Sequence record: PZ452610.1
DNA from: a phage
Strand: one strand, 5' to 3'
DNA: 64,000 nt
This document shows positions 1 through 44,335 of the stretch, piece after piece. Below the pieces are notes generated by a model, which saw only the letters and a program-made list of their open reading frames with translations, made no database searches and had not been told where the DNA came from. The position numbers were made by a program, and so were the translations under genes. Every line of letters begins with the position of its first letter. Positions within the stretch are counted from its first letter, which is position 1.

Positions 1-53
1 AGTGATACAAATATTGTTAAAAGACCAATTCGGTTGGTTTCGCCTAATTTCAT
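1..53 (-). CDS. hypothetical protein, N-terminal fragment (gene runs off window start)
   Basis: ATG at 53..51 (MKLGETNRIGLL...) with GAGGAG RBS and early promoter cassette upstream; continues past position 1. Confidence 0.35.
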   Translation of the reverse strand, partial: MKLGETNRIGLLTIFVS

Positions 54-73
54 AATATTCTCCTCATGTTTTA

Positions 74-110
74 ATAGGACTACTATAACATAGTCCTATC
101 AGTTTGTACA
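74..110 (-). promoter_or_regulatory. early-type promoter with palindromic stem-loop (PeSL-like cassette)
   Basis: Inverted repeat TAGGACTA/TAGTCCTA around minus-sense TATAGT -10, -35-like GTACAA ~17 nt upstream. Confidence 0.5.
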
Positions 111-111
111 C

Positions 112-312
112 TTATTTTGACATTTCTTCGATATCACGACGATACCCGTCACGAACTTCACGAAGAGCTTCAAGGCCACACATAGGCTCGATGCCAGTAA
201 TGTGAACTTGATTAATCTGATACTCTACATCTTCTAACTGAGCGAAAATGTAACGACGTTCTGCTGCACAGCCAGGTTTAGCTTTACCGAAACGTTTATT
301 CAAAGTAGTCAT
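112..312 (-). CDS. hypothetical small early protein
   Basis: ORF 112..333; preferred start ATG 312 (MTTLNKRF...) preceded by GGAG RBS; same leader/ATG ACT start as ORFs at 4923 and 41355. Confidence 0.5.
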   Translation of the reverse strand: MTTLNKRFGKAKPGCAAERRYIFAQLEDVEYQINQVHITGIEPMCGLEALREVRDGYRRDIEEMSK

Positions 313-343
313 TTTGTATCTCCATTCACTCATTTGTTTTGAT

Positions 344-379
344 AGGTCTATAGTATCAACAACTACAGACCTTGTAAAC
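344..379 (-). promoter_or_regulatory. early-type promoter cassette
   Basis: plus gtaaac (minus GTTTAC -35) and tctatagta (-10 region) upstream of ORF 112..312. Confidence 0.45.
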
Positions 380-391
380 AGTTTGGTGAAA

Positions 392-1348
392 TTATTTGAA
401 AGGTTTTACCATATGAAAATTTTGTTTGAAACGCTTGACGTAATCGTCGTGTCCTAAGCTTTGATACATACTTACTACTTTGCCATAGTTCTCCCAGGCA
501 TACTCACGGAACCAGCCTGATGTGATTGAAGTACAGACCTTTTCTAATGCCATCATAAAACTATCACGAGGATGGATTTCAAAGCCATTAGGAATCTGAG
601 AACGTTCTAACGCTAGTACACATGTTTCTTCATATACACCGGCCAATTTGACCATTTCCGGAAGTGATTCAAACTTCTCGCGTGAGGTCATTACTTCAGA
701 ACCGTCTTTCATATAAAACGTATAAGCCGGACGGTCTGTTAGTGCAATGGCTTCATGAATAGTATCATGGTCATATGTATAGATGTCATCTTTAAAGAAC
801 GCACTTTTAGAAGTGTCAAGAACCGGGTGAGCATAGTTCAAGGTTTCTTTCTGGCGTTTCAGCATAATTTCAGTAAGTTCATCGTTAAGTGTAACACCTT
901 TACCACGAAGATACTGAATATGGTTCATAGTCTTTAAAAAGAATGGATTATTTTTCTTGAAACGATGAGACATCTTAATTGCAAGACATATCTCAGGAGT
1001 TGCCCAGTAAAACCCGTTCAAACGGTCTTTAGTCAAATTTTTCTTGGCGTATTTTAAAAGGTCATAAGAAGACGTGAAATCTTCAGGAGTGAGTTCACCG
1101 ACTAATTCACGGACATTAGTGATTGCCGGAACAATATATGCTTCAAAATGAGTTTCGCGTCCATTATGGAAGCATTTGAAAACTTGGACATCAGGGTTAT
1201 CTTGGTGAACATATACACCCATCATTTGATTTTTGAATGCATTCCAAGAACCTTGGTCCGCAATAAAGTCCCAATCACTATTTTTAATAGCGCTAGAATC
1301 AATAAGACCGTGATAGTGAAGTGCACGAGAACCAATAACTAACATCAT
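392..1348 (-). CDS. hypothetical protein, possible nucleotidyltransferase-fold N-terminus
   Basis: 318 aa ORF, ATG ATG start with GAGGAA RBS; N-terminal GS...SDWD arrangement loosely resembles Pol-beta-type NTase motif (weak, from inspection only). Confidence 0.6.
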   Translation of the reverse strand: MMLVIGSRALHYHGLIDSSAIKNSDWDFIADQGSWNAFKNQMMGVYVHQDNPDVQVFKCFHNGRETHFEAYIVPAITNVRELVGELTPEDFTSSYDLLKYAKKNLTKDRLNGFYWATPEICLAIKMSHRFKKNNPFFLKTMNHIQYLRGKGVTLNDELTEIMLKRQKETLNYAHPVLDTSKSAFFKDDIYTYDHDTIHEAIALTDRPAYTFYMKDGSEVMTSREKFESLPEMVKLAGVYEETCVLALERSQIPNGFEIHPRDSFMMALEKVCTSITSGWFREYAWENYGKVVSMYQSLGHDDYVKRFKQNFHMVKPFK

Positions 1349-1376
1349 AATATTTTCCTCGGATTAATTCATTAAC

Positions 1377-1616
1377 TTAAATTTCACGACATGCGATATT
1401 ATATTCATCCCAGAGGTCATCATGTGAAGCCTCTACCAATGGAACGATTGTACCGTTTATGTCTTCATTATAAGGGCAAATTGTACAGTGCGCATCTTCG
1501 AATCGGATGCCTTTGTGTTCAGATTTTTTATAACGCATATCGAATATCTTTGCAAACTTTTCACGAGTAATGGTTTTACCAACCACTTTGGTTCCGATAC
1601 TTTCGTAATAAATCAT
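1377..1616 (-). CDS. hypothetical protein
   Basis: 79 aa ORF immediately downstream of early promoter cassette 1636..1674; Cys-containing (CTICPY). Confidence 0.5.
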   Translation of the reverse strand: MIYYESIGTKVVGKTITREKFAKIFDMRYKKSEHKGIRFEDAHCTICPYNEDINGTIVPLVEASHDDLWDEYNIACREI

Positions 1617-1635
1617 TGTGGACTCTATTTGTTTT

Positions 1636-1674
1636 GATAGGACTACTATAACATAGCCCTATCTTGTTGTAAAC
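1636..1674 (-). promoter_or_regulatory. early-type promoter with palindromic stem-loop (PeSL-like)
   Basis: gataggactactataacatagccctatc palindrome plus gtaaac (-35 GTTTAC on minus). Confidence 0.5.
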
Positions 1675-1678
1675 TGTT

Positions 1679-1876
1679 TTAGCAAGAATAACTAGATGAT
1701 ACCCAGCCTTGAACAGTGATACTATTGTGGGATAATGAGATCGCGTCCTGGAGATTCAGACCTGCGTTATCTTCAATCCATAATGTAACTTCTTCGCGTT
1801 CTTCTGTTGCAATTTGGAACAGGTTTTCCAGAGCAGCTACTGCCGTACGTACAGCACAATCTAATTCGCGAGACAT
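1679..1876 (-). CDS. small protein with conserved C-terminal GWVSSSYSC tail (family member 3)
   Basis: 65 aa; ATG at 1876 preceded by TAAGGAA; C-terminus shared with the two upstream ORFs. Confidence 0.6.
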   Translation of the reverse strand: MSRELDCAVRTAVAALENLFQIATEEREEVTLWIEDNAGLNLQDAISLSHNSITVQGWVSSSYSC

Positions 1877-1885
1877 ATTGTTTCC

Positions 1886-2158
1886 TTAGCAAGTGTGAGA
1901 AGATGCGACCCAACCACCAGTTTCGAGGCTCAGGTTGTAGTCGTATTGGTAAACGTCAGCCCATTCAGCATAACCGTTTTTTGTACAACGTTCAAGATCG
2001 GCTTTAAGATGTCCGGGTGAATGATAGGTTCCACCCATACCATAAGCTGGGTACAAGTTGAATGTTGTGTTTTGTTTATCAGCAATTTCTTTGGCAGCCT
2101 CAATAGCTGCATAGATTTTTGCTACAGCTTCAGCCAGTTCGGTTTGTTCTTTAGACAT
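1886..2158 (-). CDS. small protein with conserved C-terminal GWVASSHTC tail (family member 2)
   Basis: 90 aa; ATG at 2158 preceded by TAAGGAA; translationally coupled to neighbours. Confidence 0.6.
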   Translation of the reverse strand: MSKEQTELAEAVAKIYAAIEAAKEIADKQNTTFNLYPAYGMGGTYHSPGHLKADLERCTKNGYAEWADVYQYDYNLSLETGGWVASSHTC

Positions 2159-2167
2159 AATGATTCC

Positions 2168-2473
2168 TTAGCACAACGCAGAAGACGAAACCCAAGCACC
2201 TTCAGTAATAACGTAACCATTACCTTCACGCTTAACATCACCACCATTATTTTCAATTTCATTTTTCATCCACTGGGATACGATTTCACCCTTAGGATAA
2301 TAAGTACGACCGCTACCATAATCACCTACAGAAAATGATACGGCATATTGGTCTGCGATCTTTGTTGCTTCTTCTTCGATGCGTTCAGCTTGATTCAGAA
2401 GTTTATAAATTGCATCTGAAGCGGATTTGGCATCATTAAACTCTGGTACTTTAATTTCAATAATCTTACTCAT
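2168..2473 (-). CDS. small protein with conserved C-terminal AWVSSSALC tail (family member 1)
   Basis: 101 aa; start overlaps stop of upstream ORF (ATGA); shares GxxYxPxG and C-terminal tail with paralogs. Confidence 0.6.
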   Translation of the reverse strand: MSKIIEIKVPEFNDAKSASDAIYKLLNQAERIEEEATKIADQYAVSFSVGDYGSGRTYYPKGEIVSQWMKNEIENNGGDVKREGNGYVITEGAWVSSSALC

Positions 2474-2829
2474 TTTCTACATTCCTTAATAAAGTTTTCG
2501 ATTGTTTCATTTTCACGTTTAGCTAGGAGTTCATTATAACTAATCATTTGAGAAGCGTAAACCTTTTTATTTTTCTTGTTATGGTTTATAAAATCGTAGT
2601 AAAAATAGACTACAGTACAAAATGATGCGATGGATGCAAAGGCTTGGGTATACCGTAAGTCCTGCCATTGGTCTGTGAATCCGCCAGTGTTCCCTATAAA
2701 TCCTAACACAACGCCGTCAATAAGAAATCCAACTAATCCAAAGGCAAATCCCATGCCAATACTCATAATAAAAATTAGAATGTTCTCACCAAGAGAAGGC
2801 CATACGGTTAAGAGTTGAGGCTTTTGCAT
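2470..2829 (-). CDS. putative small membrane protein
   Basis: 119 aa with long hydrophobic stretch (IFIMSIGMGFAFGLVGFLIDGVVLGFIG). Confidence 0.55.
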   Translation of the reverse strand: MQKPQLLTVWPSLGENILIFIMSIGMGFAFGLVGFLIDGVVLGFIGNTGGFTDQWQDLRYTQAFASIASFCTVVYFYYDFINHNKKNKKVYASQMISYNELLAKRENETIENFIKECRK

Positions 2830-3023
2830 CTTATTTCCTTAACGAATTCCATAGCTTCTTCATATTCATACTTTTTAACAGCTTCATCATACTGAGCTTG
2901 GGCTTTTGCGCACTGAACTTTCCATTCTCTTAATCGGGCTCTGTGATGACGTCCTTGGTACCAATATCCCATCCAGTTAATAGGCATTAATAAAAACGGT
3001 ACAATAAGTGGTGCGACGAACAT
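2808..3023 (-). CDS. putative small membrane protein
   Basis: 71 aa, N-terminal hydrophobic helix (FVAPLIVPFLLMPINWMGYW) then charged tail; weak RBS. Confidence 0.45.
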   Translation of the reverse strand: MFVAPLIVPFLLMPINWMGYWYQGRHHRARLREWKVQCAKAQAQYDEAVKKYEYEEAMEFVKEIRCKSLNS

Positions 3024-3064
3024 TAATGAAAATGCTGCATCAGACGATATAACTTCACTAGAAT

Positions 3065-3205
3065 CTAAAACGGCTCCCCTATAATCATAAAGATTAAAAA
3101 TGCTAAAGCTAAAATAGGGCCAAATAGTACTTCATTTGGGATTAATTTACGCTTGTATTCATATGCCCAGGGCTTAATTGGCATGTACAGGGTTGGCTTT
3201 GACAT
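3065..3205 (-). CDS. possible 46-aa membrane peptide
   Basis: ATG at 3205, hydrophobic core VLFGPILALAFLIFMIIG; overlaps 3' end of ORF 3174..3770; weak RBS. Confidence 0.25.
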   Translation of the reverse strand: MSKPTLYMPIKPWAYEYKRKLIPNEVLFGPILALAFLIFMIIGEPF

Positions 3206-3770
3206 ATTCTCTACATTCCATAATAAATTGCTCAAGGATTAAATTGTTAGTGAAATTAGGACTAACAACCATAGTTTCATAAAGCGCATCAATAGCACTT
3301 AAAGCATCAACTCTTTTAAGCAAAGGCTTGCCTTCATACATAGTTTCAGAATCGACGATTAACGTAAAGTAGTATTTTTTATTATCGACTAGAACTTCTG
3401 TATCGATATAAAACATATTAGACCTCAGAAGCTTATCTCTAAAACCATAATAATCTTCAGAGCGTTCGCTAATATATTCCCATTCGGTGTTTAAACAACA
3501 AACAGACCACGTAGGAGCAACGAAATCAGTGAATCTAATATCATGGTCTACAACTAGTTTAGCAATAGCTCCGATATCATGAATCATAATACCCGGGGCT
3601 AATAAAGATTTTCGGTTATTTGCGTATTCAGTTGTCTCATAAGAAGACGACCAGTACCATTTACGCCCGGTTGCAACATATCGTAATGAATCAACTAAAG
3701 ACGTAGGTGGATTTACCTTATCTCGGAACTCTTCGAACATTGAGTCAATATCATTATTTTGGTTTCGCAT
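3174..3770 (-). CDS. hypothetical protein
   Basis: Track ORF 3174..3791 starts at TTG; preferred ATG 3770 (MRNQNND...) with AGGAG RBS directly after terminator hairpin. Confidence 0.6.
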   Translation of the reverse strand: MRNQNNDIDSMFEEFRDKVNPPTSLVDSLRYVATGRKWYWSSSYETTEYANNRKSLLAPGIMIHDIGAIAKLVVDHDIRFTDFVAPTWSVCCLNTEWEYISERSEDYYGFRDKLLRSNMFYIDTEVLVDNKKYYFTLIVDSETMYEGKPLLKRVDALSAIDALYETMVVSPNFTNNLILEQFIMECREYVKANPVHAN

Positions 3771-3789
3771 GTTAACTCCTTTATTATCC

Positions 3790-3811
3790 AAAAGGAGGAC
3801 CGGAGTCCTCC
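3790..3811 (-). terminator. rho-independent terminator hairpin
   Basis: GGAGGAC-cgga-GTCCTCC perfect hairpin; T-run on minus strand downstream. Confidence 0.6.
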
Positions 3812-3819
3812 GTATTATT

Positions 3820-4413
3820 TTATTTCAAAGAGTTAATATATTCTTGTACATCAGCAGAAGTGGTTTCGACACCGGCTGGAGTGCCATTGAATGTTTCGAC
3901 ACGAGTCAGAGTGTCTTCGATATCAACCTTAGTCAGTGCAGCAATTTCAATCACATCATCAGCCGTAGAGATACCAAGAGCATTGGCTGCTCGAGTTTCA
4001 CGAATGTATTCGAGTTTGATTGCCAGATTCTGACGAGCATCATCAAGTTCAACCACCTTACGAGCAATTTCAATTCGCATAGCGGCATAACCGTCAGCTT
4101 TTGTATTAAGTTGTTCGGCAGTTCGACGATACAGAAGACCAAGCTTAGCATGCATGGTAACATCTTGTCCTTCAGCCAGGAGCTTACGAATTTCACGTTC
4201 CTTAGAAGCGGCTTGCTTGTTCTTTTCATTAACAAGTTCGCGAATACGTTTTTCTTCATTAATAGATTTAACAGAAGCCGTTTTTAGTTCTTTGATTTGG
4301 GTAATCAACTTATCTGCGGCTGCGTTATACTGTTCTTCGACAGTCAGATTTTTAGCCATAGCAGTACCCAGTTTAGTGCGGATGAATTCAACAAGTTTCT
4401 TCAGTGTGTTCAT
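3820..4413 (-). CDS. coiled-coil protein (PspA/IM30-like appearance, unverified)
   Basis: Track start is TTG at 4428; preferred ATG 4413 (MNTLKK...); heptad-rich, highly charged sequence. Confidence 0.55.
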
Positions 4414-4483
4414 ATTATTACCTTTCAATTGGTGGTTTATTATCCAACGAGAGCATTATACTCTGCTCTCAAGAGTTTGTAAA

Positions 4484-4711
4484 TTATTTTTTAATCAAAT
4501 TGACATAAAACTTGGCGTCTTCGGGGTGCATGCCTTCGCAGTATTCTTCAACCATGAACTTCTTAACAGCTTCATAAGGACCACTCAGATTAAGCTCAGT
4601 TGTCCAGAACTTGGAATCTTGTACTGAATCGATACGAACTTCAGGGTGACGGTTGCGAATAACTTCTTCTGTGTATTCATAATCAACGACATCAATACTA
4701 ACTGTAGCCAT
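4484..4711 (-). CDS. hypothetical protein
   Basis: 75 aa, ATG with GAGGAG RBS, promoter-like element 4736..4770 upstream. Confidence 0.55.
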   Translation of the reverse strand: MATVSIDVVDYEYTEEVIRNRHPEVRIDSVQDSKFWTTELNLSGPYEAVKKFMVEEYCEGMHPEDAKFYVNLIKK

Positions 4712-4735
4712 TTTGTTTCTCCTCTCGATTTAATG

Positions 4736-4770
4736 TGATTACTATAACATAAACTTACTTAGATGTAAAT
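4736..4770 (-). promoter_or_regulatory. early-type promoter
   Basis: minus-sense ATTTAC ... TATAGT upstream of ORF 4484..4711. Confidence 0.4.
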
Positions 4771-4923
4771 TATTTCAACGTCACCTTTAGCTGCTTTATA
4801 ACCTTCAGCCCAAGATACAACAGAGTTTTTATCTGAGGATTCAAATTCAGGCATTGGACTTTCACCAATATTCACACAGTATGTTTCTTCATTTTCATCG
4901 AACCAAATAATTAAAGTAGTCAT
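4759..4923 (-). CDS. hypothetical 54-aa protein
   Basis: ATG at 4923 (MTTLIIWFDENEETYC...) with AGGAG RBS inside the 47-bp cassette; below track length cutoff. Confidence 0.45.
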   Translation of the reverse strand: MTTLIIWFDENEETYCVNIGESPMPEFESSDKNSVVSWAEGYKAAKGDVEIIYI

Positions 4924-4963
4924 TTTGTTTACTCCTCTGTAGTTGATAAGTCTATAGTATCAC
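4917..4963 (-). repeat. 47-bp promoter/RBS/start cassette, identical copy at 41349..41395
   Basis: tagtcattttgtttactcctctgtagttgataagtctatagtatcac identical at both loci by direct comparison. Confidence 0.85.
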
Positions 4964-4991
4964 CATCCTTGGTGCTTGTACATCATTATTT

Positions 4992-5297
4992 TTAATTTTT
5001 CCAACTTAACAACTTGTAGTGTCCTTCATTCGTACGAGGTTTATCCCAAGAAATACTAATATATGATTCGCTATCAATAGAAGTCGCCGGGTTTTTCTCT
5101 ACCGTAAGACCTTCACTTTCCAGCCATTCAATAGTATTTGCGCATAAATCTGAAGAACACCTCATCGGAAACTGGCAAGATTTTTCACCTTTAGATGCTG
5201 CATCGTACATCTTTTCTAAAATACGCTTTTGCACGTTTTTAAAAATAGTTTCAGCAGATTCTTCAGATTTTTTATTCAGTTCAGTGTAAAGACTCAT
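4992..5297 (-). CDS. hypothetical protein
   Basis: 101 aa ORF, ATG at 5297 with GAGGAAAA RBS and cassette 5316..5354 upstream. Confidence 0.55.
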   Translation of the reverse strand: MSLYTELNKKSEESAETIFKNVQKRILEKMYDAASKGEKSCQFPMRCSSDLCANTIEWLESEGLTVEKNPATSIDSESYISISWDKPRTNEGHYKLLSWKN

Positions 5298-5315
5298 AAC
5301 ATTTTCCTCTATGGT

Positions 5316-5354
5316 TGATAAGTCTATAGTATCATGTCCTTAGAAGAAGTAAAC
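5316..5354 (-). promoter_or_regulatory. early-type promoter cassette
   Basis: ttgataagtctatagtatca shared 20-mer with cassettes at 4943 and 41376; gtaaac -35 on minus. Confidence 0.45.
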
Positions 5355-5390
5355 ATCTTTATGAAATATTTTTATGCCCTAGATACCAAA

Positions 5391-5414
5391 AGGCCCCAAC
5401 CATAAGGAAGGGGC
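5391..5414 (-). terminator. rho-independent terminator
   Basis: GGCCCC...GGGGC hairpin; minus strand followed by T-run (plus aaaa 5387..5390). Confidence 0.55.
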
Positions 5415-5420
5415 ATTCTA

Positions 5421-5885
5421 TTATTTAATTTGTTTAGCAGACCAGATACGGTCTTTAATAAGTTTTTGGATATCTTCAACATACTCAAGGCTATGAGCGT
5501 GAGGATTATCTTTGAAGCTATGTGCTCGTGCCAGTTTCTGGCCTTCTGTTTTGATTACTAAAAGCTCTTTAAGAATTGCTTCATACTTAGAAATAATTCC
5601 TTTGGCGATATTTTTTTCTTGAGCTGCTTTAGGGTCTGTTTTTGGCGCAGGTGCTTTACCTGTAGCTTTCTGGAACAATTCACCTGATGCAGCTAGGCTT
5701 TTAAAAACTCGGCTAACAGTATTAGCATTAGTAAAACCTTCGGCTTTAAAATCTCTAATAAAACGGAAACGTTCTTCATCAGAGGCGTCTTTGTAAGAAT
5801 ATTTACCTGCTTGAATTGCTGCAATCGCAGCGGCTTTTACATCTGAACTAGATTGTTCAGTCAAAAATTCAGCGTATGATTTCAT
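5421..5885 (-). CDS. putative capsid-packaged internal protein (CTS-like N-terminus)
   Basis: N-terminus MKSYAEFLTE resembles T4 internal-protein capsid targeting sequence MKTYQEFIAE with LxE cleavage site; basic 154 aa. Confidence 0.55.
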   Translation of the reverse strand: MKSYAEFLTEQSSSDVKAAAIAAIQAGKYSYKDASDEERFRFIRDFKAEGFTNANTVSRVFKSLAASGELFQKATGKAPAPKTDPKAAQEKNIAKGIISKYEAILKELLVIKTEGQKLARAHSFKDNPHAHSLEYVEDIQKLIKDRIWSAKQIK

Positions 5886-5930
5886 GTTGCTTTTCCTAAG
5901 TTAATTAACTTATCTATTTATTATTATGCC

Positions 5931-5957
5931 AAAAAGCCCCGACCTTTCGGAAGGGGC
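5931..5957 (-). terminator. rho-independent terminator
   Basis: GCCCC-gacctttcggaa-GGGGC hairpin; TTTTT on minus strand. Confidence 0.6.
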
Positions 5958-6269
5958 TAAGCCTTGCGGCAACCTTGTCGGGGTTCCACCTGCTAAGGCA
6001 AGTGTTTGTACGAAACGCCGGGATTCGAACCCGGTTATTAAGCAGTTGACGCTACTCAATATTTTTAAAAGGCCATATCTCGACCATATCCGAACGTTCC
6101 GTCAAAAACGCTACTCGGCTTACGGCAAAGATATTTCCTCGAATCGATAATTCTGTGCGCCGTTTCTGCTGTGATGTAAGGGGATATTAACAAATCGTAA
6201 AGATTTATTAAGACCAGTCCTTACTCAGGGAACATCAGTCCGACGACTTGCCGGTAGCGACCCGGCTTC
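5958..6269 (-). ncRNA. non-coding structured region with tRNA-like T-arm hairpin (possible small stable RNA or tRNA remnant)
   Basis: No credible ORF; minus-sense CCGGG-TTCGAAT-CCCGG canonical T-arm at 6016..6032 but no canonical cloverleaf; bounded by terminator. Confidence 0.3.
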
Positions 6270-6614
6270 TTATTTTGACATATCATCAATTTGCTCTCGA
6301 CGCCGACGCCATAGATTAATCGCTTCATTAACACATTCGGCGTTTGGTATATGACGGCAATAATATAATGATTCGCGTTTCTGGAACCGATGTTGCAATG
6401 GAATTTCGTTTAAAAGGTCTTTACGGTCAAAGTATTCAAAACCGGTTAACCCAGAACGGTTTTTAAGAAACTTCCAATGTCCGAATTAATTTTGAAAATA
6501 AACATAATCAGCATGTTGATATAACGAATTAATCAACCGGTCGGAAATAACTGTTTCACGTTCGTTAAAATAAAACGTTAAATCATGAACTACCAGATAA
6601 ACATTGCCTTTCAT
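6270..6614 (-). pseudogene. ORF interrupted by in-frame TAA (41 codons, stop at 6488..6486, then 72 sense codons)
   Basis: Same frame read through by eye: MKGNVYLVVHDLTF...YFQN*FGHWKFLKNRSG...DDMSK; second part has no ATG start. Confidence 0.45.
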
Positions 6615-6632
6615 ATTTTCCTCACTTAAAGT

Positions 6633-6709
<77 letters not shown>

Positions 6710-6712
6710 GAT

Positions 6713-6789
6713 TGGTGACCCAGACCAGATTCGAACTGGTAACCTTTCCCTTATGAGGGGACTGCTGCTAACCATTGAGCTACAGGGCC
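6713..6789 (-). tRNA. tRNA with CAU anticodon (Met or Ile-type)
   Basis: Canonical T-arm ACCAG-TTCGAAT-CTGGT, anticodon loop CUCAUAA, encoded CCA; acceptor and D stems have mismatches. Confidence 0.5.
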
Positions 6790-6794
6790 TAAAT

Positions 6795-6850
6795 AACTTT
6801 CTATTATGAAAGGCACTTTAGAGCACCTTTGGTAATAGAGGGTATGAATT
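6795..6850 (-). promoter_or_regulatory. sigma70-like promoter upstream of tRNA pair
   Basis: minus-sense TTACCA ... 17 nt ... CATAAT ending ~14 nt before tRNA 5' end. Confidence 0.3.
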
Positions 6851-6868
6851 AATAATAACACATAATTT

Positions 6869-7384
6869 TTAAAGCAAATCAATCATTTTAACAGTCGGCA
6901 AAACGATTTCTTCTTCAATATAAGCAAATTCAACACATTCAACTACACGCAAGAAATCATAATCATAATATTCAGAAGCATGGCCAAGAATATCAATGAG
7001 ACCTTCTGATACTAAATATCCGTTCTCACGGAACAGGTCAAATACACGTGATTCGTCTTCTTCAGATTTATTACCAAGGTCAACTTCAATATCAAAGACC
7101 TTTTTAATGAATTCTGGATAAAGATGGTCTGAGAACAGTCCTTCAACCAGATATTCGTAGATAATAAGCGAGCAATCACTGAATGGTGTATTACCACAGT
7201 AACGTTCAGCTTTAGTGCTAGAATGACTACTCTTAAATTTCTTCAAGAGATATTTAAACTGTTGGAGCTCATGCTCTTCTACACCAAATAATGTTTTGGT
7301 TTTATAGCTGTCGCCGTCATTTTCCGAAGTAGTGACATCAATTACGTAACCCTTAGGAATTGTACTACCTAAACAAATATTCAT
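6869..7384 (-). CDS. hypothetical protein
   Basis: 171 aa, ATG start; last gene of a 4-gene coupled operon. Confidence 0.55.
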   Translation of the reverse strand: MNICLGSTIPKGYVIDVTTSENDGDSYKTKTLFGVEEHELQQFKYLLKKFKSSHSSTKAERYCGNTPFSDCSLIIYEYLVEGLFSDHLYPEFIKKVFDIEVDLGNKSEEDESRVFDLFRENGYLVSEGLIDILGHASEYYDYDFLRVVECVEFAYIEEEIVLPTVKMIDLL

Positions 7385-7388
7385 TTAC

Positions 7389-7679
7389 TCACCGTACCAT
7401 ATTAATGTAGTTATATTCAATGCAACGTAATTTCAAAGGGTTCTTGAAAATATCATATTCAAGAGGGCCTGATTCAGTTTCAATAAAGAAATCAAAATTA
7501 ACTGTGTTAAATTTATTGTCTTCACAGAGTAATTTAACCTGTGAAGATGAACGGTCGATATAAACCTTTTCAACCTCAAAGTTAGTCAGAATACCGTAGT
7601 CATCGACTAGTGCTTTAGCTGCACGTTGGTCGCTTTCATATCCATTCTCAACGGATTTTACCTTAGCATAAAGAATCAT
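7389..7679 (-). CDS. hypothetical protein
   Basis: 96 aa; ATG overlaps stop of upstream ORF (ATGA). Confidence 0.55.
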   Translation of the reverse strand: MILYAKVKSVENGYESDQRAAKALVDDYGILTNFEVEKVYIDRSSSQVKLLCEDNKFNTVNFDFFIETESGPLEYDIFKNPLKLRCIEYNYINMVR

Positions 7680-8038
7680 GAATGTTCCACCACTTCAAAG
7701 GTATGAGCATCAACAATATGGTACCAGTCAAAATTTTCTTCCGCGTTTTTATAAATTTCGCGAAGAGCCTCAACAGTTTTTCCTGTAGCAACAAGGTCGT
7801 CAATACCGCCAAGAGGATAACAGTCGTAACCGGCAAACAGAATGAAATTAATAGTTTCTGTAGGGGCCGGATGCAGTGTACCATTGTCATCGACTACTTC
7901 AAAGAACATATAACCAGGCGATTTAGATTTAATCCAAGCCCATGCTTGAGCTGCTGAATCAAATGGTCTGCGTATCAAACGACAATCAGGGTCTTTAGAA
8001 GGATTTGCTTCAAAATCCGCATATACGTGATATTTCAT
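7676..8038 (-). CDS. hypothetical protein
   Basis: Track start is TTG at 8071; preferred ATG 8038 (MKYHVYADF...) with AAGGTGAG RBS right after upstream stop. Confidence 0.55.
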   Translation of the reverse strand: MKYHVYADFEANPSKDPDCRLIRRPFDSAAQAWAWIKSKSPGYMFFEVVDDNGTLHPAPTETINFILFAGYDCYPLGGIDDLVATGKTVEALREIYKNAEENFDWYHIVDAHTFEVVEHS

Positions 8039-8039
8039 T

Positions 8040-8225
8040 TTACTCACCTTTTGCAATTTTATCCATAACAATAGCGATTAAACCGATTAGAAATGCTACT
8101 ACCAATGAGATAGAATTTTCAGTTGTTGTCAGTAGTCCGCAAATGAATCCTACAAACATCGAAAAACTAAAAGCCATTGAAGCAATTACTACAGCAACAT
8201 TACGAATCAGTTCAGCGCGTTTCAT
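8040..8225 (-). CDS. small membrane protein
   Basis: 61 aa, two hydrophobic segments; promoter cassette 8249..8285 upstream. Confidence 0.5.
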   Translation of the reverse strand: MKRAELIRNVAVVIASMAFSFSMFVGFICGLLTTTENSISLVVAFLIGLIAIVMDKIAKGE

Positions 8226-8248
8226 TTTATTATCCTCTCATGTTTTGA

Positions 8249-8285
8249 TAGGACTACTATAACATAGTCCTATCATCATGTAAAC
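8249..8285 (-). promoter_or_regulatory. early-type promoter with palindromic stem-loop (PeSL-like)
   Basis: gataggactactataacatagtcctatc perfect palindrome; minus GTTTAC -35 and TATAGT -10 with 18-nt spacer. Confidence 0.55.
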
Positions 8286-8287
8286 TA

Positions 8288-8551
8288 TTAAATACCAGCT
8301 TCGCGTTTAACATAATCGACGTAAGCTTGGATAGCTTTCTTGCTGGTAATTTTTACCTGGCCACGACCATTGCCTTCTTTAGAGTTTTTCTTAACAACTA
8401 CATTACCATCTTTAACACCCCATACATGGACGTAAGTACCGATGTTTCGGTCGTAGAACATTGCATGGTCATTGTTGTAAGAGAATGATTCATAGTTCTC
8501 TGTCAAAGCAAAAGATTCGGATTCTGCGATAAATTCTTTATACGTTTTCAT
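8288..8551 (-). CDS. internal protein (capsid targeting sequence MKTYKEFIAE)
   Basis: N-terminus matches T4 IP capsid-targeting sequence with LxE/IAE cleavage context; 87 aa. Confidence 0.7.
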   Translation of the reverse strand: MKTYKEFIAESESFALTENYESFSYNNDHAMFYDRNIGTYVHVWGVKDGNVVVKKNSKEGNGRGQVKITSKKAIQAYVDYVKREAGI

Positions 8552-8574
8552 TTATTTTTCCGTTTGGTTGTTTT

Positions 8575-8613
8575 GATAGGACTACTATAACATAGCCCTA
8601 TCAAGATGTAAAC
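8575..8613 (-). promoter_or_regulatory. early-type promoter with palindromic stem-loop (PeSL-like)
   Basis: ttgataggactactataacatagccctatc plus gtaaac. Confidence 0.5.
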
Positions 8614-8616
8614 TAC

Positions 8617-8904
8617 TTACAGAAGAGTTTTTGCAATAATTTTAAGCTGAGCTACAGAAATATGCTTAGCTTTAAACAGTGCGGTCTCTTCAGCCGGAGA
8701 GATAACAATAGTAGCGCCATCTTTCTTAGCAGACCATCCATCCCCTAAGTAAACAGTACCTTTTACTTCTTCGCCGTCAACCAGACTAATCATTGGTTTA
8801 CCCTCACGTCCTTTATTTGCTTTAATAACTTCGGAAGTAAGGGTTGCTTCGGTCAGAGTAGAAACGTTAGCAACAGGTGATATAAATTCTTTATAGGTTT
8901 TCAT
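8617..8904 (-). CDS. internal protein (capsid targeting sequence MKTYKEFI)
   Basis: N-terminal CTS-like MKTYKEFISP...LTE; 95 aa; ipII/ipIII position next to 57B. Confidence 0.7.
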   Translation of the reverse strand: MKTYKEFISPVANVSTLTEATLTSEVIKANKGREGKPMISLVDGEEVKGTVYLGDGWSAKKDGATIVISPAEETALFKAKHISVAQLKIIAKTLL

Positions 8905-8930
8905 TTTATTTCCTTGAGGTTGTTTATTTG

Positions 8931-8969
8931 ATAGGATGATAGTATCACACCATCATACTTATGTAAACT
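8931..8969 (-). promoter_or_regulatory. early-type promoter cassette
   Basis: gataggatgatagtatcac plus gtaaac; near-identical to element at 57003..57041. Confidence 0.5.
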
Positions 8970-8981
8970 GTTTTGTGAAAA

Positions 8982-9667
<686 letters not shown>

Positions 9668-9671
9668 TTTA

Positions 9672-10406
9672 TTACCTTAAGATTGTTTCAATTTTAGAAT
9701 AAAGCTCTTCTAAAGAGCCGTCGTTTGTAATAACTAAATCGCCTTCTTCAATAGGCAACCCAGCTTCTGTAATATGTTTATCAGTGGATTCCGTACCAGA
9801 GCGAACCACATGAATAACTGTAGCACCCATCGCTCTAGCGGTTTCCATTTCATGGACTTGGCGTGTATCGGTTACAACATAGTAATCGAAATCACTTCCA
9901 ATATAATCCATATAGTTTAATGCAAAAAGTTTAACCCAATACATACGGTCAAATAAATTAACGACAACATCCGTACCGAGGGCTTGCATAAGACGGCGGA
10001 TTGACCATGTGTCGTTGATATTATTTATAGCTTCACGCAGGGCTTCATACGGTTTAATATCTAGATATGAATACCCACCTTCTAAGGATGATAATACTTT
10101 AACATTATTAATTGGTAAATATTGACTTTGTAAATAAATTAGCGCTTCTTCCAATAATTCAATAACATCCAACTTATTGAGATTTAATGGTGTTTCACGG
10201 TCATATCCGACACCTTCAAAGTATTCGTATTTCAACTCTGTGAATACATTAGGGTTTTCGGCATGTTTACGTCCCCAGGCTATTGCTAGAGCGTCTTTAA
10301 TCGGATATGCCAATTGGTATTTTACGGATTTAAAGTTTGAATTGATGTAATCAGCAGTGGTGTCTTTACCACTACGTTTGACGCCACTTAAAAAGATTAG
10401 CTCCAT
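9672..10406 (-). CDS. 1: gp1 deoxynucleoside monophosphate kinase
   Basis: 244 aa; N-terminal P-loop LSGVKRSGKDT; T4 synteny 57A-1-3-2-4. Confidence 0.85.
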   Translation of the reverse strand: MELIFLSGVKRSGKDTTADYINSNFKSVKYQLAYPIKDALAIAWGRKHAENPNVFTELKYEYFEGVGYDRETPLNLNKLDVIELLEEALIYLQSQYLPINNVKVLSSLEGGYSYLDIKPYEALREAINNINDTWSIRRLMQALGTDVVVNLFDRMYWVKLFALNYMDYIGSDFDYYVVTDTRQVHEMETARAMGATVIHVVRSGTESTDKHITEAGLPIEEGDLVITNDGSLEELYSKIETILR

Positions 10407-10459
10407 AGGTTTTCCTCATATAATTTATGAGTGATTATAACATACGGAGCTAGAAGCGA

Positions 10460-11044
10460 TTAACGCAAGGAAGGGTGTCTAGAAATGGATTTAGATTCGA
10501 CTGCTTGACGTGGTTGTTGAGATACAATGACTTCACCATCCTTTTCTATCGTCATATACGCATAGTGAATAGTTGCTACGCACGTAACGGCAGGGTCAGA
10601 ATCTTCAGTGTAACTAAATTCAATTTCGCTCAGATCGGAAATCCATGGTTTATAGAAATTTGCCGTCAAAACTACTTCTGTCTTATTGTTATTTAAAATG
10701 TGCAAAGTAACAAACTCAGGACCATCGGAGTGGGCAGTATTATGTCCGGTTATATAGTTATTAGTGCTGAGCATCCATTTATACATGTTCATCCAGGACG
10801 TCATGTCTTCATCAACTATAAATCGTACAATAAAAGGGTCGTATTCAAATGTGGTGCCTGCACGCATTGCACGTCCTAACCCCATTGTGCCTGTCACAGT
10901 TTCAACAACAGGAATTCTCACACCTGGCAACGGTGCCGTTTGAGCATTGAGCACAAAACCCGAAGTTCGTGTACTATCTGGGATATCCACAACAAAGTTT
11001 GTTATATTTGTTTGGTTAAAAATCTGTCTCGTTGGACGAGTCAT
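10460..11044 (-). CDS. 3: gp3 tail completion / sheath stabilizer protein
   Basis: Track start is GTG at 11050; preferred ATG 11044; position between genes 1 and 2. Confidence 0.75.
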   Translation of the reverse strand: MTRPTRQIFNQTNITNFVVDIPDSTRTSGFVLNAQTAPLPGVRIPVVETVTGTMGLGRAMRAGTTFEYDPFIVRFIVDEDMTSWMNMYKWMLSTNNYITGHNTAHSDGPEFVTLHILNNNKTEVVLTANFYKPWISDLSEIEFSYTEDSDPAVTCVATIHYAYMTIEKDGEVIVSQQPRQAVESKSISRHPSLR

Positions 11045-11146
11045 AAGCACCTCAAAAACGCTTTAATAAAAATGCAGTATAATGGTTTTAGGTCTCTTCC
11101 ATTAATCTGGTTCAACAGAATATCAGAAGAACGGAAGAGAATAGAA

Positions 11147-11968
11147 TTAAGATTTCCAAACAGTATTCGCAGAGAAACGTTTTCCTTTTGACATAAATTG
11201 CTGAGTAGGTAACATGATTATGTTAGCCCAGTCTTTAGGAGCTATTTCTGTTATTGTTCCTCTAATGTGGCCTGGCAGGTATGCTTTAATCATTTTGTCC
11301 GCACCTTGAAATCCTTTCACCTTGCTCCAGTCTATCTTCAACTTTGTGTTATTAGTAATAGTAGTTGTGCTAGCATATTGCTTCAGCAATTCTTCAAGAA
11401 ACTGTTGTCGTGCTTTAGGTGGGATATAGTGCAAGTTTAACCCATACATCAAATTATGTTTACCTAATCCTAAATAAATAATCAAAGGATATCTGTCCCA
11501 ATACGGCAGAGTATCTTTATGTTTAGCATCATACACGTAAGTATAAATTTTGCCTGGCGTAGGCTTGACTACTTTATGACCTTTTACACTTTTCTTAATT
11601 GTTTCAACAAACCACTTAGATGATTTGTTGTTTACTGCTGCGCCTTCATTTCTAATCTTTTCTCGTATTGAACTGCGAAACGAGTTTATCATCAGAAGTT
11701 GACGTTCTTGCTTATTGAGTTTATTTTTAGGTTTAGATTCAAGCGTTTCAATTTTCTGTGCAGTCTTAATAGATGATGCATATCTAGACATTGCAGATGT
11801 AAACGACGAGTATTTTATTCCTTTTGATTCTGCAAATGCTTTTGCAGTGATTCCTTTCTCTTTAGCTTTCTTGTATTCTAATCCTATCTCAATCCATTTT
11901 CTTTCATTCATAGACTGAGCAATCTTAGGGGCTTGTACGCCTTCAGATATAATTTGGAATATGCTCAT
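11147..11968 (-). CDS. 2: gp2 DNA end protector protein
   Basis: 273 aa (T4 gp2 ~274), basic; synteny. Confidence 0.8.
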
Positions 11969-11970
11969 AA

Positions 11971-12420
11971 TTACCCCTTGTATCCGAGTTTTCTAAGACC
12001 ATCTTCGGTTAGAACTCGAAATTTTATATTTCTCTTTTCAGCAACAGCTGAGGCAGCTTTCCATTTGTCACAGTTCACAGACCAGGTATATATTTCATTC
12101 ATATAACGTTTCTTTGCTGCGGTAGTAAGATTTGCGGGCTTAATAGGTGGTTGAGTTTCTTTCTTTGGTTTTATTTCTACAAAGAACTCTTGACCTGATG
12201 CATCTTTCATCCATATGTCCATATAGTATCGACGTTTCTTACCTTCAGCATTACAAAAATATGGAATTACTGCTGTTTCACTACCCCATGCAATAATTTC
12301 TGGATTTTTATCCAACCATTCGAAAAAGAATTTTTCCCAGTTTGAACGATACGTTATTTTGGTATGGTCTCCACGGTATTTTTTTAAATTTTTTGGGACC
12401 CATTTACCAGAGTAGGCCAT
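11971..12420 (-). CDS. 4: gp4 head completion protein
   Basis: Preferred ATG 12420 ([11 protein letters not shown]...) with GGAGGA RBS gives 150 aa as in T4; track ORF 197 aa uses upstream non-ATG. Confidence 0.85.
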
Positions 12421-43892: not shown

Positions 43893-44144
43893 TTAGAACT
43901 TGATTTCTATCCAATGCCCATCACGTTGGTCATGATTAATTTTGTACTGAAAGCCGTTATCACGAAGCCATTGACCGACTTGCTCGGTGATAGTTAAATC
44001 ATTCTTTGATGGATAGTACGTGAATTGTGTCTGGCCTTTGTCAGCGGCTTTCTCTGCCATCACAGAGAAGTTAGTAATAAAATCACTCAACAAATTGGCT
44101 TTAGTGGCCAGAGCCCTTTCTCTTAATTCCTGTGCAAAACTCAT
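43893..44144 (-). CDS. hypothetical protein (24.3-like position)
   Basis: 83 aa ORF between rnlB and hoc. Confidence 0.55.
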   Translation of the reverse strand: MSFAQELRERALATKANLLSDFITNFSVMAEKAADKGQTQFTYYPSKNDLTITEQVGQWLRDNGFQYKINHDQRDGHWIEIKF

Positions 44145-44335
44145 TTCTTCACCTTTTTGTTAATCAAACGTTTACGGTATACAACTTTTTCTTTTGCTTT
44201 AAACTTTGACCGAGCTGTCTCGGCTTTAGTCCATAGTAATCCAACTTCTTTAGGTTGTAAACCGATTTTTTGAGCAATTTCTACGAATGAAAATCCCGCC
44301 TCATGTAATGTATAAACTTCAACTTCAGCTCTCAT
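44141..44335 (-). CDS. hypothetical small basic protein, possible HTH
   Basis: Track start is TTG at 44341; preferred ATG 44335; segment FSFVEIAQKIGLQPKEV and basic tail. Confidence 0.5.
   Translation of the reverse strand: MRAEVEVYTLHEAGFSFVEIAQKIGLQPKEVGLLWTKAETARSKFKAKEKVVYRKRLINKKVKK

Follow-up and report, generated by a model that had tools for sequence, protein, structure and literature searches.

A stretch of phage DNA of 64,000 nucleotides (nt) (sequence record PZ452610.1; its full length is hereafter called the window) carries on its minus strand three tandem small genes, W1, W2 and W3, whose products all end in a tail of the type G-W-V-(S/A)-S-S-x-x-C. Sequence comparison places these products as paralogs in an undescribed, widespread and phage-restricted family of small acidic proteins. 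Together with the gene for a protein of 318 amino acids (aa) that comprises the domains DUF7277 and DUF7275, and that is predicted to be a nucleotidyltransferase of the polymerase beta (Pol-beta) fold, this family constitutes a conserved two-family phage module. We propose that the tail engages the transferase, most likely with the serine three residues after the tryptophan (Ser W+3) as acceptor or pseudo-substrate, and we assign this proposal a probability of roughly 0.4. An earlier note on the window, written from its letters, had pointed out the shared tail and had suggested that it is a tag for docking, localisation or processing. Our analysis confirms that the observation is real and supports the interpretation in part.

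A family of small proteins with a conserved tail

When all six frames of the 64-kb window were searched with the pattern W[VILMA][SAGT]S[SAT]..C-stop, matches were found in three places only, namely at the ends of W1, W2 and W3. Among 80 related loci, the motif terminates 217 open reading frames (ORFs) of the gene strand, as opposed to 0 of the 2209 ORFs on the other strand. On the basis of these two counts, a chance motif was rejected. The coordinates, the minus strand and the translations that had been given for the three tandem ORFs agree with our reading of the sequence. In profile comparisons W3 and W2 matched phrog_899 (E values of 1.8e-22 and 5e-19, respectively) and W1 matched phrog_4882 (E 7.7e-37); none of the three had a match in Pfam, NCBIfam, PADLOC or the PDB sequences.

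The earlier note had regarded the three proteins as otherwise divergent, which is true for one of them. W2 and W3 are homologous over their full length (BLASTP, 30% identity over 73 aa, E 3e-6), and when the last ten residues are removed, 162 of 192 family members, W2 and W3 included, remain in one BLAST cluster. The W1-type bodies form a short cluster of their own. Since without their tails they match the body profile of the main family no better than shuffled sequences do, the tail is the sole sequence that W1 detectably shares with that family. W2 is 41% identical over its full length to the product of gene 81 of the Xanthomonas jumbo phage XbC2 and is therefore closer to this protein than to its neighbour W3. 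This relationship indicates that the W2- and W3-type subfamilies are old and probably non-interchangeable. The idea of a tag placed on unrelated proteins is thus not borne out: the tail is the most conserved part of one family with a common core. The alignments reveal a common plan: the N-terminus forms a long helix that closes with IADE(H/Y)G, next come a beta strand (xFxF) and the loop YGxG(G)TYYP, and a variable insert separates this loop from the terminal G-x-W-x-S-S-x-x-C. The family is acidic throughout, with a median isoelectric point (pI) of 4.35.

The invariant core of the motif is made up of the tryptophan, the serine at W+3 and a cysteine at W+5 or W+7. Position W+4 is mostly serine, and A, N, D, T or G are tolerated there. 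Among 189 unique members from the related loci, the tryptophan is found 8 residues before the end in 142 and 6 residues before it in 40. Although the mean column identity in the alignments is only 18-27%, tryptophan, Ser W+3 and cysteine are retained. In one subfamily (…IWYPSSC) the motif occurs twice, the additional copy, DWLNSSCYGE, being internal. When 1.84 billion cluster representatives were searched with a profile, 358 members were obtained at E 0.001 or better, corresponding to 358 clusters at 50% identity; nearly all of them are 72-153 aa long and the match extends to the C-terminus. It is important to note that 128 of the 142 representatives that had not been seen before end in the motif and that 11 more have one residue beyond the cysteine (139/142 in total). 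Homologs without the tail in related phages had been named in the earlier note as evidence that would speak against a shared tail. We looked for them, and the homologs in related as well as in very distant phages keep the tail, which leaves the claim unrefuted.

The codons of the three tails in the window differ at synonymous positions, exactly as had been described (GTT/GTC/GTA for valine, TCG/GCA/TCA at W+2 and TCT/TCT/AGT at W+5). Across 166 family members, all six serine codons are used at the invariant serine positions (30-33% AGY), the tail cysteine is encoded by TGC in 111 and by TGT in 55 members, and all three stop codons occur. A constraint at the nucleotide level was therefore rejected. 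Judged by this variety of serine, cysteine and stop codons, selection on the tail acts on the protein rather than on a DNA or RNA element, and the earlier view that the tail is conserved as a peptide and is no copied block of DNA holds for the family at large.

An AlphaFold2 model of W3, calculated from a 45-sequence alignment, was confident (predicted local distance difference test, pLDDT, 90.8). It contains a helix at residues 15-43, strands at 47-49 and 56-59, a second helix at 67-75, strands at 79-83, 86-91 and 93-96, and a turn at 97-100. These last two elements, the strand and the short turn, are formed by the tail (mean pLDDT 91 for residues 91-100), which is thus modelled as part of a folded domain, not as a floppy tag. 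No match to the predicted W3-type fold was found in the PDB.

In a hidden Markov model (HMM) scan of all 927 ORFs of the window, W1, W2 and W3 were the sole members of the family. One further ORF at 43893-44159 (minus strand; …AEKAADKGQTQFTYYPSKND…) showed weak similarity to the helix and TYYP part (E 0.004 with profile A5 and 0.26 with profile A4) and does not end in the Cys tail; the similarity may reflect either distant kinship or chance.

Linkage to a predicted nucleotidyltransferase gene

To assess the gene neighbourhood we approached the module from both sides. In an enzyme-first survey we compiled 80 viral loci, with transferase identities to the window protein that range between 98% and 39%. 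In 78 of them, one to five motif ORFs precede the transferase gene on its own strand at a distance of up to about 3 kb, and the opposite strand has none. One of the two exceptions is a locus that ends 243 nt upstream of the enzyme gene and that has ...GWKNSSSSC-stop at its very edge, so that 79 of the 80 loci have a tail. The other is phage CC31 (loci L024/L127, record positions 67713-70111), in which the transferase gene directly adjoins a cluster of seven or eight tRNA genes that takes up the upstream space. When the neighbouring ORFs of all loci were clustered, the tail family and the transferase were the only families conserved across loci. The pairing is also seen in XbC2, where two tandem tail proteins (…GGWVASSQTC and …GRWMGSSDFC) are encoded two genes upstream of a homolog of the 318-aa protein.

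The reverse search took the small proteins as its starting point. With a DNA pattern for W-V-S-S-S-x-x-C-TAA, 30 stretches were retrieved, of which 27 contain genuine family ORFs and the other three short random ORFs. All family ORFs that could be assessed, i.e. those in new loci with enough downstream DNA or on contigs already known to carry the enzyme, are accompanied by the transferase. Likewise, three of three distant small proteins from independent assemblies (Logan, JGI and ENA) have a DUF7277/DUF7275 gene 1 kb or less downstream. The pairing was also found in Stenotrophomonas phage Moby, Salmonella jumbo phage Munch and Acinetobacter phage Apostate; in Moby the tail gene lies downstream of the enzyme gene, whereas it lies upstream elsewhere. 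Only a single match was obtained in 100,044 bacterial and archaeal genomes, on a 4.8-kb contig of a Bacillota metagenome-assembled genome (MAG), and there the pairing is present as well. Database searches gave 2163 relatives of the transferase at E 1e-5 or better, and members of its family are present in 734 deposited phage genomes.

A Pfam scan of the 318-aa protein at E values up to 1 revealed only DUF7275 (PF23940) and DUF7277 (PF23942); in the same scan there was no match to DUF1814, the MenT/AbiEii family, and PADLOC provided no model. The AlphaFold2 model, based on 48 homologs, has a pLDDT of 92.3 and a predicted template modelling score (pTM) of 0.86. Its structural relatives, given with the value of the match, are the MenT1 toxin (10.0), ANT(2'') (8.7), TglT/MenT3 (8.4), MenT4 (7.7), TM1012 (7.6), an H. 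pylori nucleotidyltransferase (7.4) and LnuA (7.2). The top match in Foldseek was MenT1, too (probability 1.0). The protein conforms to the Pol-beta signature, hG[GS]...[DE]h[DE]h followed by a third carboxylate on a later strand: I-G6-S7 ends strand 1, D25-W-D27 starts strand 2, and E69 is located on the strand 64-73. G6, S7, D25, D27 and E69 are invariant in the 48 homologs. The model thus predicts a Pol-beta-fold nucleotidyltransferase, and since the invariant residues fit the signature, the enzyme is probably active. The helical C-terminal half (DUF7275) is even more conserved than the nucleotidyltransferase half. Its invariant residues include K125, H128, H174, H194-D195, H198, E240-E241, C243, C272 and R281, and Cys243 and Cys272 could form a metal site with the four invariant histidines. 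No convincing structural or sequence relative of this half was found. Established at this point are the family, its motif, the selection at the protein level and the gene linkage, along with an enzyme of nucleotidyltransferase fold whose catalytic residues are intact.

Distant homologs of the transferase have other neighbours. In the Vibrio phages K406 and VH7D and the Gordonia phage WilliamBoone (L118 4620-4985, L119 3360-3656 and L116 4091-4910) they are flanked by a second small-protein family with the pattern GGGEG…(W/Y)SYYSY…EVxPxxxIT, which may be an alternative partner. Homology between this family and the tail family is unsupported (hhalign probability 0.2). A general linkage of the module to tRNA genes, which might have been a MenT-like hint, was also rejected, as it is confined to the enterobacterial T4-like lineage and was seen in only 5 of about 40 other loci.

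Possible roles of the tail

According to our proposal, the tail would be the element by which every paralog engages the transferase. It would present the invariant Ser W+3, flanked by the tryptophan and the terminal or near-terminal cysteine, to the catalytic cleft, where this serine would serve as hydroxyl acceptor or pseudo-substrate. One enzyme would serve several small proteins, and their variable bodies would correspond to different downstream roles. A role as acceptor is favoured for three reasons. The structural relatives ANT(2''), LnuA, MenT1, TglT/MenT3 and MenT4 all have a hydroxyl group as the acceptor of the nucleotide, an invariant Ser and an invariant Cys are more suggestive of chemistry than of mere packing, and the presence of one to five old paralogs per enzyme resembles systems in which one enzyme acts on many substrates. 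The physical interaction, the nucleotidylation of the serine and any effect on the host are inferred. In a more specific version, which we give a real though minor chance, the module would be a new phage post-translational modification system, with the transferase O-nucleotidylating Ser W+3 of small folded proteins. As a possible further step, the nucleotide could be eliminated and the terminal cysteine close by could capture the product, which would yield a lanthionine-like thioether.

Several observations weigh against an engagement of the transferase by the tail. Phage CC31 keeps the transferase and has no tail ORF within 8 kb. Transferase homologs with 35% identity or less, from Gordonia, Vibrio, Streptomyces and Roseobacter phages, are without nearby tail genes. 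The internal motif copy of the …IWYPSSC subfamily implies that a free C-terminus is not strictly required, and the position of the tail inside the modelled domain is compatible with a purely structural role. Finally, the small protein encoded upstream of MenT1 only blocks the enzyme and stays unmodified (PMC10435456).

This last point leads to the main rival explanation, in which the small proteins are antitoxin-like inhibitors that remain unmodified and block a MenT-like effector, e.g. one that extends tRNA 3' ends, as MenA1 does with MenT1. We judge this to be unlikely, even though MenT1 is the best structural match of the enzyme. MenA1 is a 68-aa long-helix protein that is encoded upstream of MenT1 and blocks its active site (PMC10435456); the phage proteins are likewise small, usually encoded upstream and start with a long helix (H15-43 in W3), and their strong acidity would be expected of an occupant of a nucleic-acid-binding cleft. 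However, toxin-antitoxin pairs are typically one to one, whereas here up to five old and probably non-interchangeable paralogs accompany one enzyme, and such antitoxins seldom keep an invariant Ser, Cys or Trp over this divergence. Moreover, the module resides in lytic phages and is essentially absent from cellular genomes (one locus in 100,044), and neither a DUF1814 match nor a PADLOC defence model was obtained. A number of paralogs with a common tail and differing inserts between the YGxGxTYYP loop and the tail would also be in line with adaptors or subunits that dock on the transferase through tail and core and recruit a host protein or RNA for nucleotidylation through the variable insert. 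The conservation of the subfamilies across distant phages and the tight gene linkage fit such adaptors, but nothing supports target binding by the bodies, W1-type members of only about 65 aa have almost no insert, and a docking motif alone leaves the invariant Ser and the terminal Cys unexplained; we therefore regard adaptors as improbable.

To a similarly low degree we credit the idea that the tail is a structural signature only, with the tryptophan in the core, a Ser-Ser turn and a Cys cap, and that the proteins act independently of the enzyme, for instance as host inhibitors or nucleotide-binding sponges, being co-located merely for co-expression. AlphaFold places the tail within a confidently folded domain, Trp and Gly are typical fold-determining residues, and the Gly-rich YGxGG(T)YY loop and the tail could form a ligand site, the internal motif directly preceding YGEE in one subfamily. 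Yet the co-location with one particular gene holds across phage groups that have no other common neighbours and survives the rearrangement seen in Moby. Such persistent pairing is a signature of functional coupling rather than of shared regulation, and packing alone poorly explains why about 98% of the members stop at the cysteine or one residue later. The remaining candidate, and by far the least probable, is the suggestion of the earlier note that host machinery recognises the tail for docking, localisation or processing. The motif is indeed C-terminal or nearly so and is conserved on several small proteins of the early region. We identified no host-related signal, however, and the tail is modelled as folded. 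The motif tracks the phage gene across Escherichia, Xanthomonas, Acinetobacter, Aeromonas, Pseudomonas and a Bacillota-associated contig, a range of hosts that speaks against reliance on one particular host factor; the partner to which the evidence points is encoded by the phage itself, namely the predicted nucleotidyltransferase.

Among known systems, those in which a nucleotidyltransferase has a small protein as its dedicated partner, such as MenAT and HEPN/MNT, would be closest to the phage module in their mode of action. In MenAT1 of Mycobacterium tuberculosis, the tRNA-modifying toxin MenT1 (Rv0078A) is paired with MenA1 (Rv0078B; PDB 8an4, 8an5; PMC10435456). Here, too, a small long-helix protein is encoded immediately upstream of the transferase gene. 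The differences are considerable: the sequences show no detectable homology (structural alignments give about 8-10% identity, and DUF1814 was not matched), the C-terminal domain of the 318-aa phage enzyme (DUF7275) is much larger and conserved to an extreme degree, and this enzyme has one to five partners instead of one. The phage partners possess a beta domain and the invariant W-x-x-S-S-x-x-C tail, both of which are absent from MenA1, and the module is found in lytic phages and not on bacterial chromosomes. In HepT/MntA, which belong to the type VII toxin-antitoxin systems, a minimal Pol-beta nucleotidyltransferase reportedly nucleotidylates, by a covalent bond, a conserved hydroxyl residue of the small partner encoded next to it; the acceptor is said to be a tyrosine of the HEPN RNase near its conserved C-terminal Rx4-6H motif. 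In contrast, the phage partner has a new predicted fold without a HEPN motif, the candidate acceptor is a serine, and its modification is hypothetical. Because of the missing DUF1814 and HEPN matches, the several partners and the restriction to phages, the module falls outside both MenAT and HEPN/MNT. It also differs from bacterial toxin-antitoxin systems, in which one toxin and one antitoxin are encoded on bacterial chromosomes, plasmids or prophages. The antibiotic-resistance enzymes ANT(2'') and LnuA (about 160-180 aa) are not similar to the phage enzyme in sequence and have no dedicated protein partner. Paralogous small products that share a Ser/Cys-rich recognition or modification segment beside one enzyme are known from pathways to ribosomally synthesized and post-translationally modified peptides (RiPPs), such as the prochlorosins with ProcM. 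Unlike these, the phage module has no known RiPP enzyme domain (such as LanB/C/M, YcaO or radical S-adenosylmethionine), its small proteins are folded domains of 60-150 aa and not leader-core peptides, and their conserved part is the putative modification site itself.

The families phrog_899, phrog_4882, DUF7275 and DUF7277 are all annotated as being of unknown function. In the library that we searched, we found no paper on DUF7275, DUF7277, the PHROG identifiers, the RB69 ORF names, the motif strings or the pairing, nor a phage counterpart in the literature on MenT. Both families occur in T4-like, jumbo and other large phages of Escherichia, Klebsiella, Acinetobacter, Aeromonas, Pseudomonas, Xanthomonas and Stenotrophomonas, and many of the phages that carry the module are candidates for phage therapy. 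Viewing the genes as one module merges dozens of 'hypothetical protein' annotations per genome family into one testable question, namely what a MenT-like transferase does with several small partners that share a Ser/Cys tail. If the partners are covalently modified, this would be a new protein-modification chemistry in phages, and a modification system would imply a family of enzyme-activated phage effectors. If the enzyme is subject to regulated inhibition, the module would be a viral equivalent of nucleotidyltransferase toxins, which bacteria for their part employ against phages.

Gene arrangement and relatives of the locus

The features of the region are compiled in Table 1. Both internal junctions of the array read TGC TAA GGAA(T/A)C A(T/A)T ATG, with a Shine-Dalgarno-like AAGGA after the stop codon. 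The succession of stop codon, TAAGGAA and next ATG, which the earlier note had given for each of the three genes, is present at W3/W2 and W2/W1; W1 is followed by a 62-nt spacer in place of a coupled gene. The transferase gene begins about 330 nt downstream of W1 on the same strand (end of W1 at 1679, start of the enzyme gene at 1348). A pattern scan of the minus strand revealed no terminator-like site from 2473 to 392, so that the array and the transferase gene may be co-transcribed by read-through. The two promoter-like sites in the table are sigma-70-like and stem from consensus scans, i.e. they are pattern matches only.

Table 1. Features of the tail array and its surroundings in the window
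Feature	Position	Strand	Remarks
W3, 101 aa, phrog_899	2168..2473	minus	ends ...ITEGAWVSSSALC (GAWVSSSALC); tail codons and stop at 2168-2194
W2, 90 aa, phrog_899	1886..2158	minus	ends ...LETGGWVASSHTC (GGWVASSHTC); tail codons and stop at 1886-1912
W1, 65 aa, phrog_4882	1679..1876	minus	ends ...ITVQGWVSSSYSC (QGWVSSSYSC); tail codons and stop at 1679-1705
Partner gene, 318 aa, DUF7277 and DUF7275	392..1348	minus	predicted Pol-beta-fold nucleotidyltransferase with highly conserved helical C-terminal domain
79-aa ORF (phrog_3723)	1377..1616	minus	between tail array and transferase gene
W3/W2 junction	2159..2167	minus	TAA of W3 (2168-2170) overlaps Shine-Dalgarno-like AAGGAA; ATG of W2 at 2156-2158; read from sequence
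W2/W1 junction	1877..1885	minus	TAAGGAA...ATG as at W3/W2; read from sequence
Promoter-like TTTACG-17-TATAAT	2533..2561	minus	inside e.3, upstream of W3; consensus match only
Promoter-like TTTACA-17-TG-TATAGT	1645..1673	minus	between W1 and 79-aa ORF; consensus match only

The 79-aa ORF contains a FEDAHCxxxPY segment. It is conserved in enterobacterial T4-like relatives only and is therefore probably not a member of the core module. The sole tRNA genes called in positions 1-12000 of the window are tRNA-Arg(tct) and tRNA-Met(cat) at 6633-6789 (minus strand). In a close relative of the window phage (L005 2381-2474), ARAGORN calls a 94-nt 'tRNA-Stop' with the anticodon UUA; there is no such call in positions 1-12000 of the window.

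With 99.9% identity to E. coli O157 typing phage 3 and about 98% to RB69, a member of the genus Mosigvirus, the region identifies the window phage as an RB69-like Mosigvirus. The RB69 equivalents of W1 and W2 are ORF136c and ORF137c, that of W3 is ORF138c+139c, and the partner gene corresponds to ORF134c; the array sits between e.3 and ORF134c, within the block ORF132c-139c. In the RB69 annotation this block is without T4 counterparts, whereas the flanking e.2 and e.3 have them, so that the family, which the earlier note did not recognise from T4, is apparently absent from that phage. The RB69 record (L001 4869-5175) annotates the W3 ortholog as two overlapping ORFs, ORF138c and ORF139c; this split is due either to a frameshift or to a sequencing error, and the ortholog is intact in other Mosigvirus genomes. 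Loci of the Gaprivervirus and Dhakavirus type (L006-L016, around 5700-7700) contain five tandem paralogs in a fixed order of subfamilies (…AWVSSSxMC, …GGWVSSSxEC, …SWVSSSYEC, …FWFxSSMSC and …IWYPSSC), of which the window has the first three types only.

A 'sulfurtransferase' annotated in Shigella phage JK42 (L002 3509-3883, equivalent to about 2808-3180 of the window) was considered and set aside, because it is a homolog of the predicted membrane protein e.4 and lies outside the module. The e.4 homolog bears this name in JK42 and a few other records and is described as a membrane protein in RB69; the name looks like an annotation artefact that is unrelated to the Cys tail.

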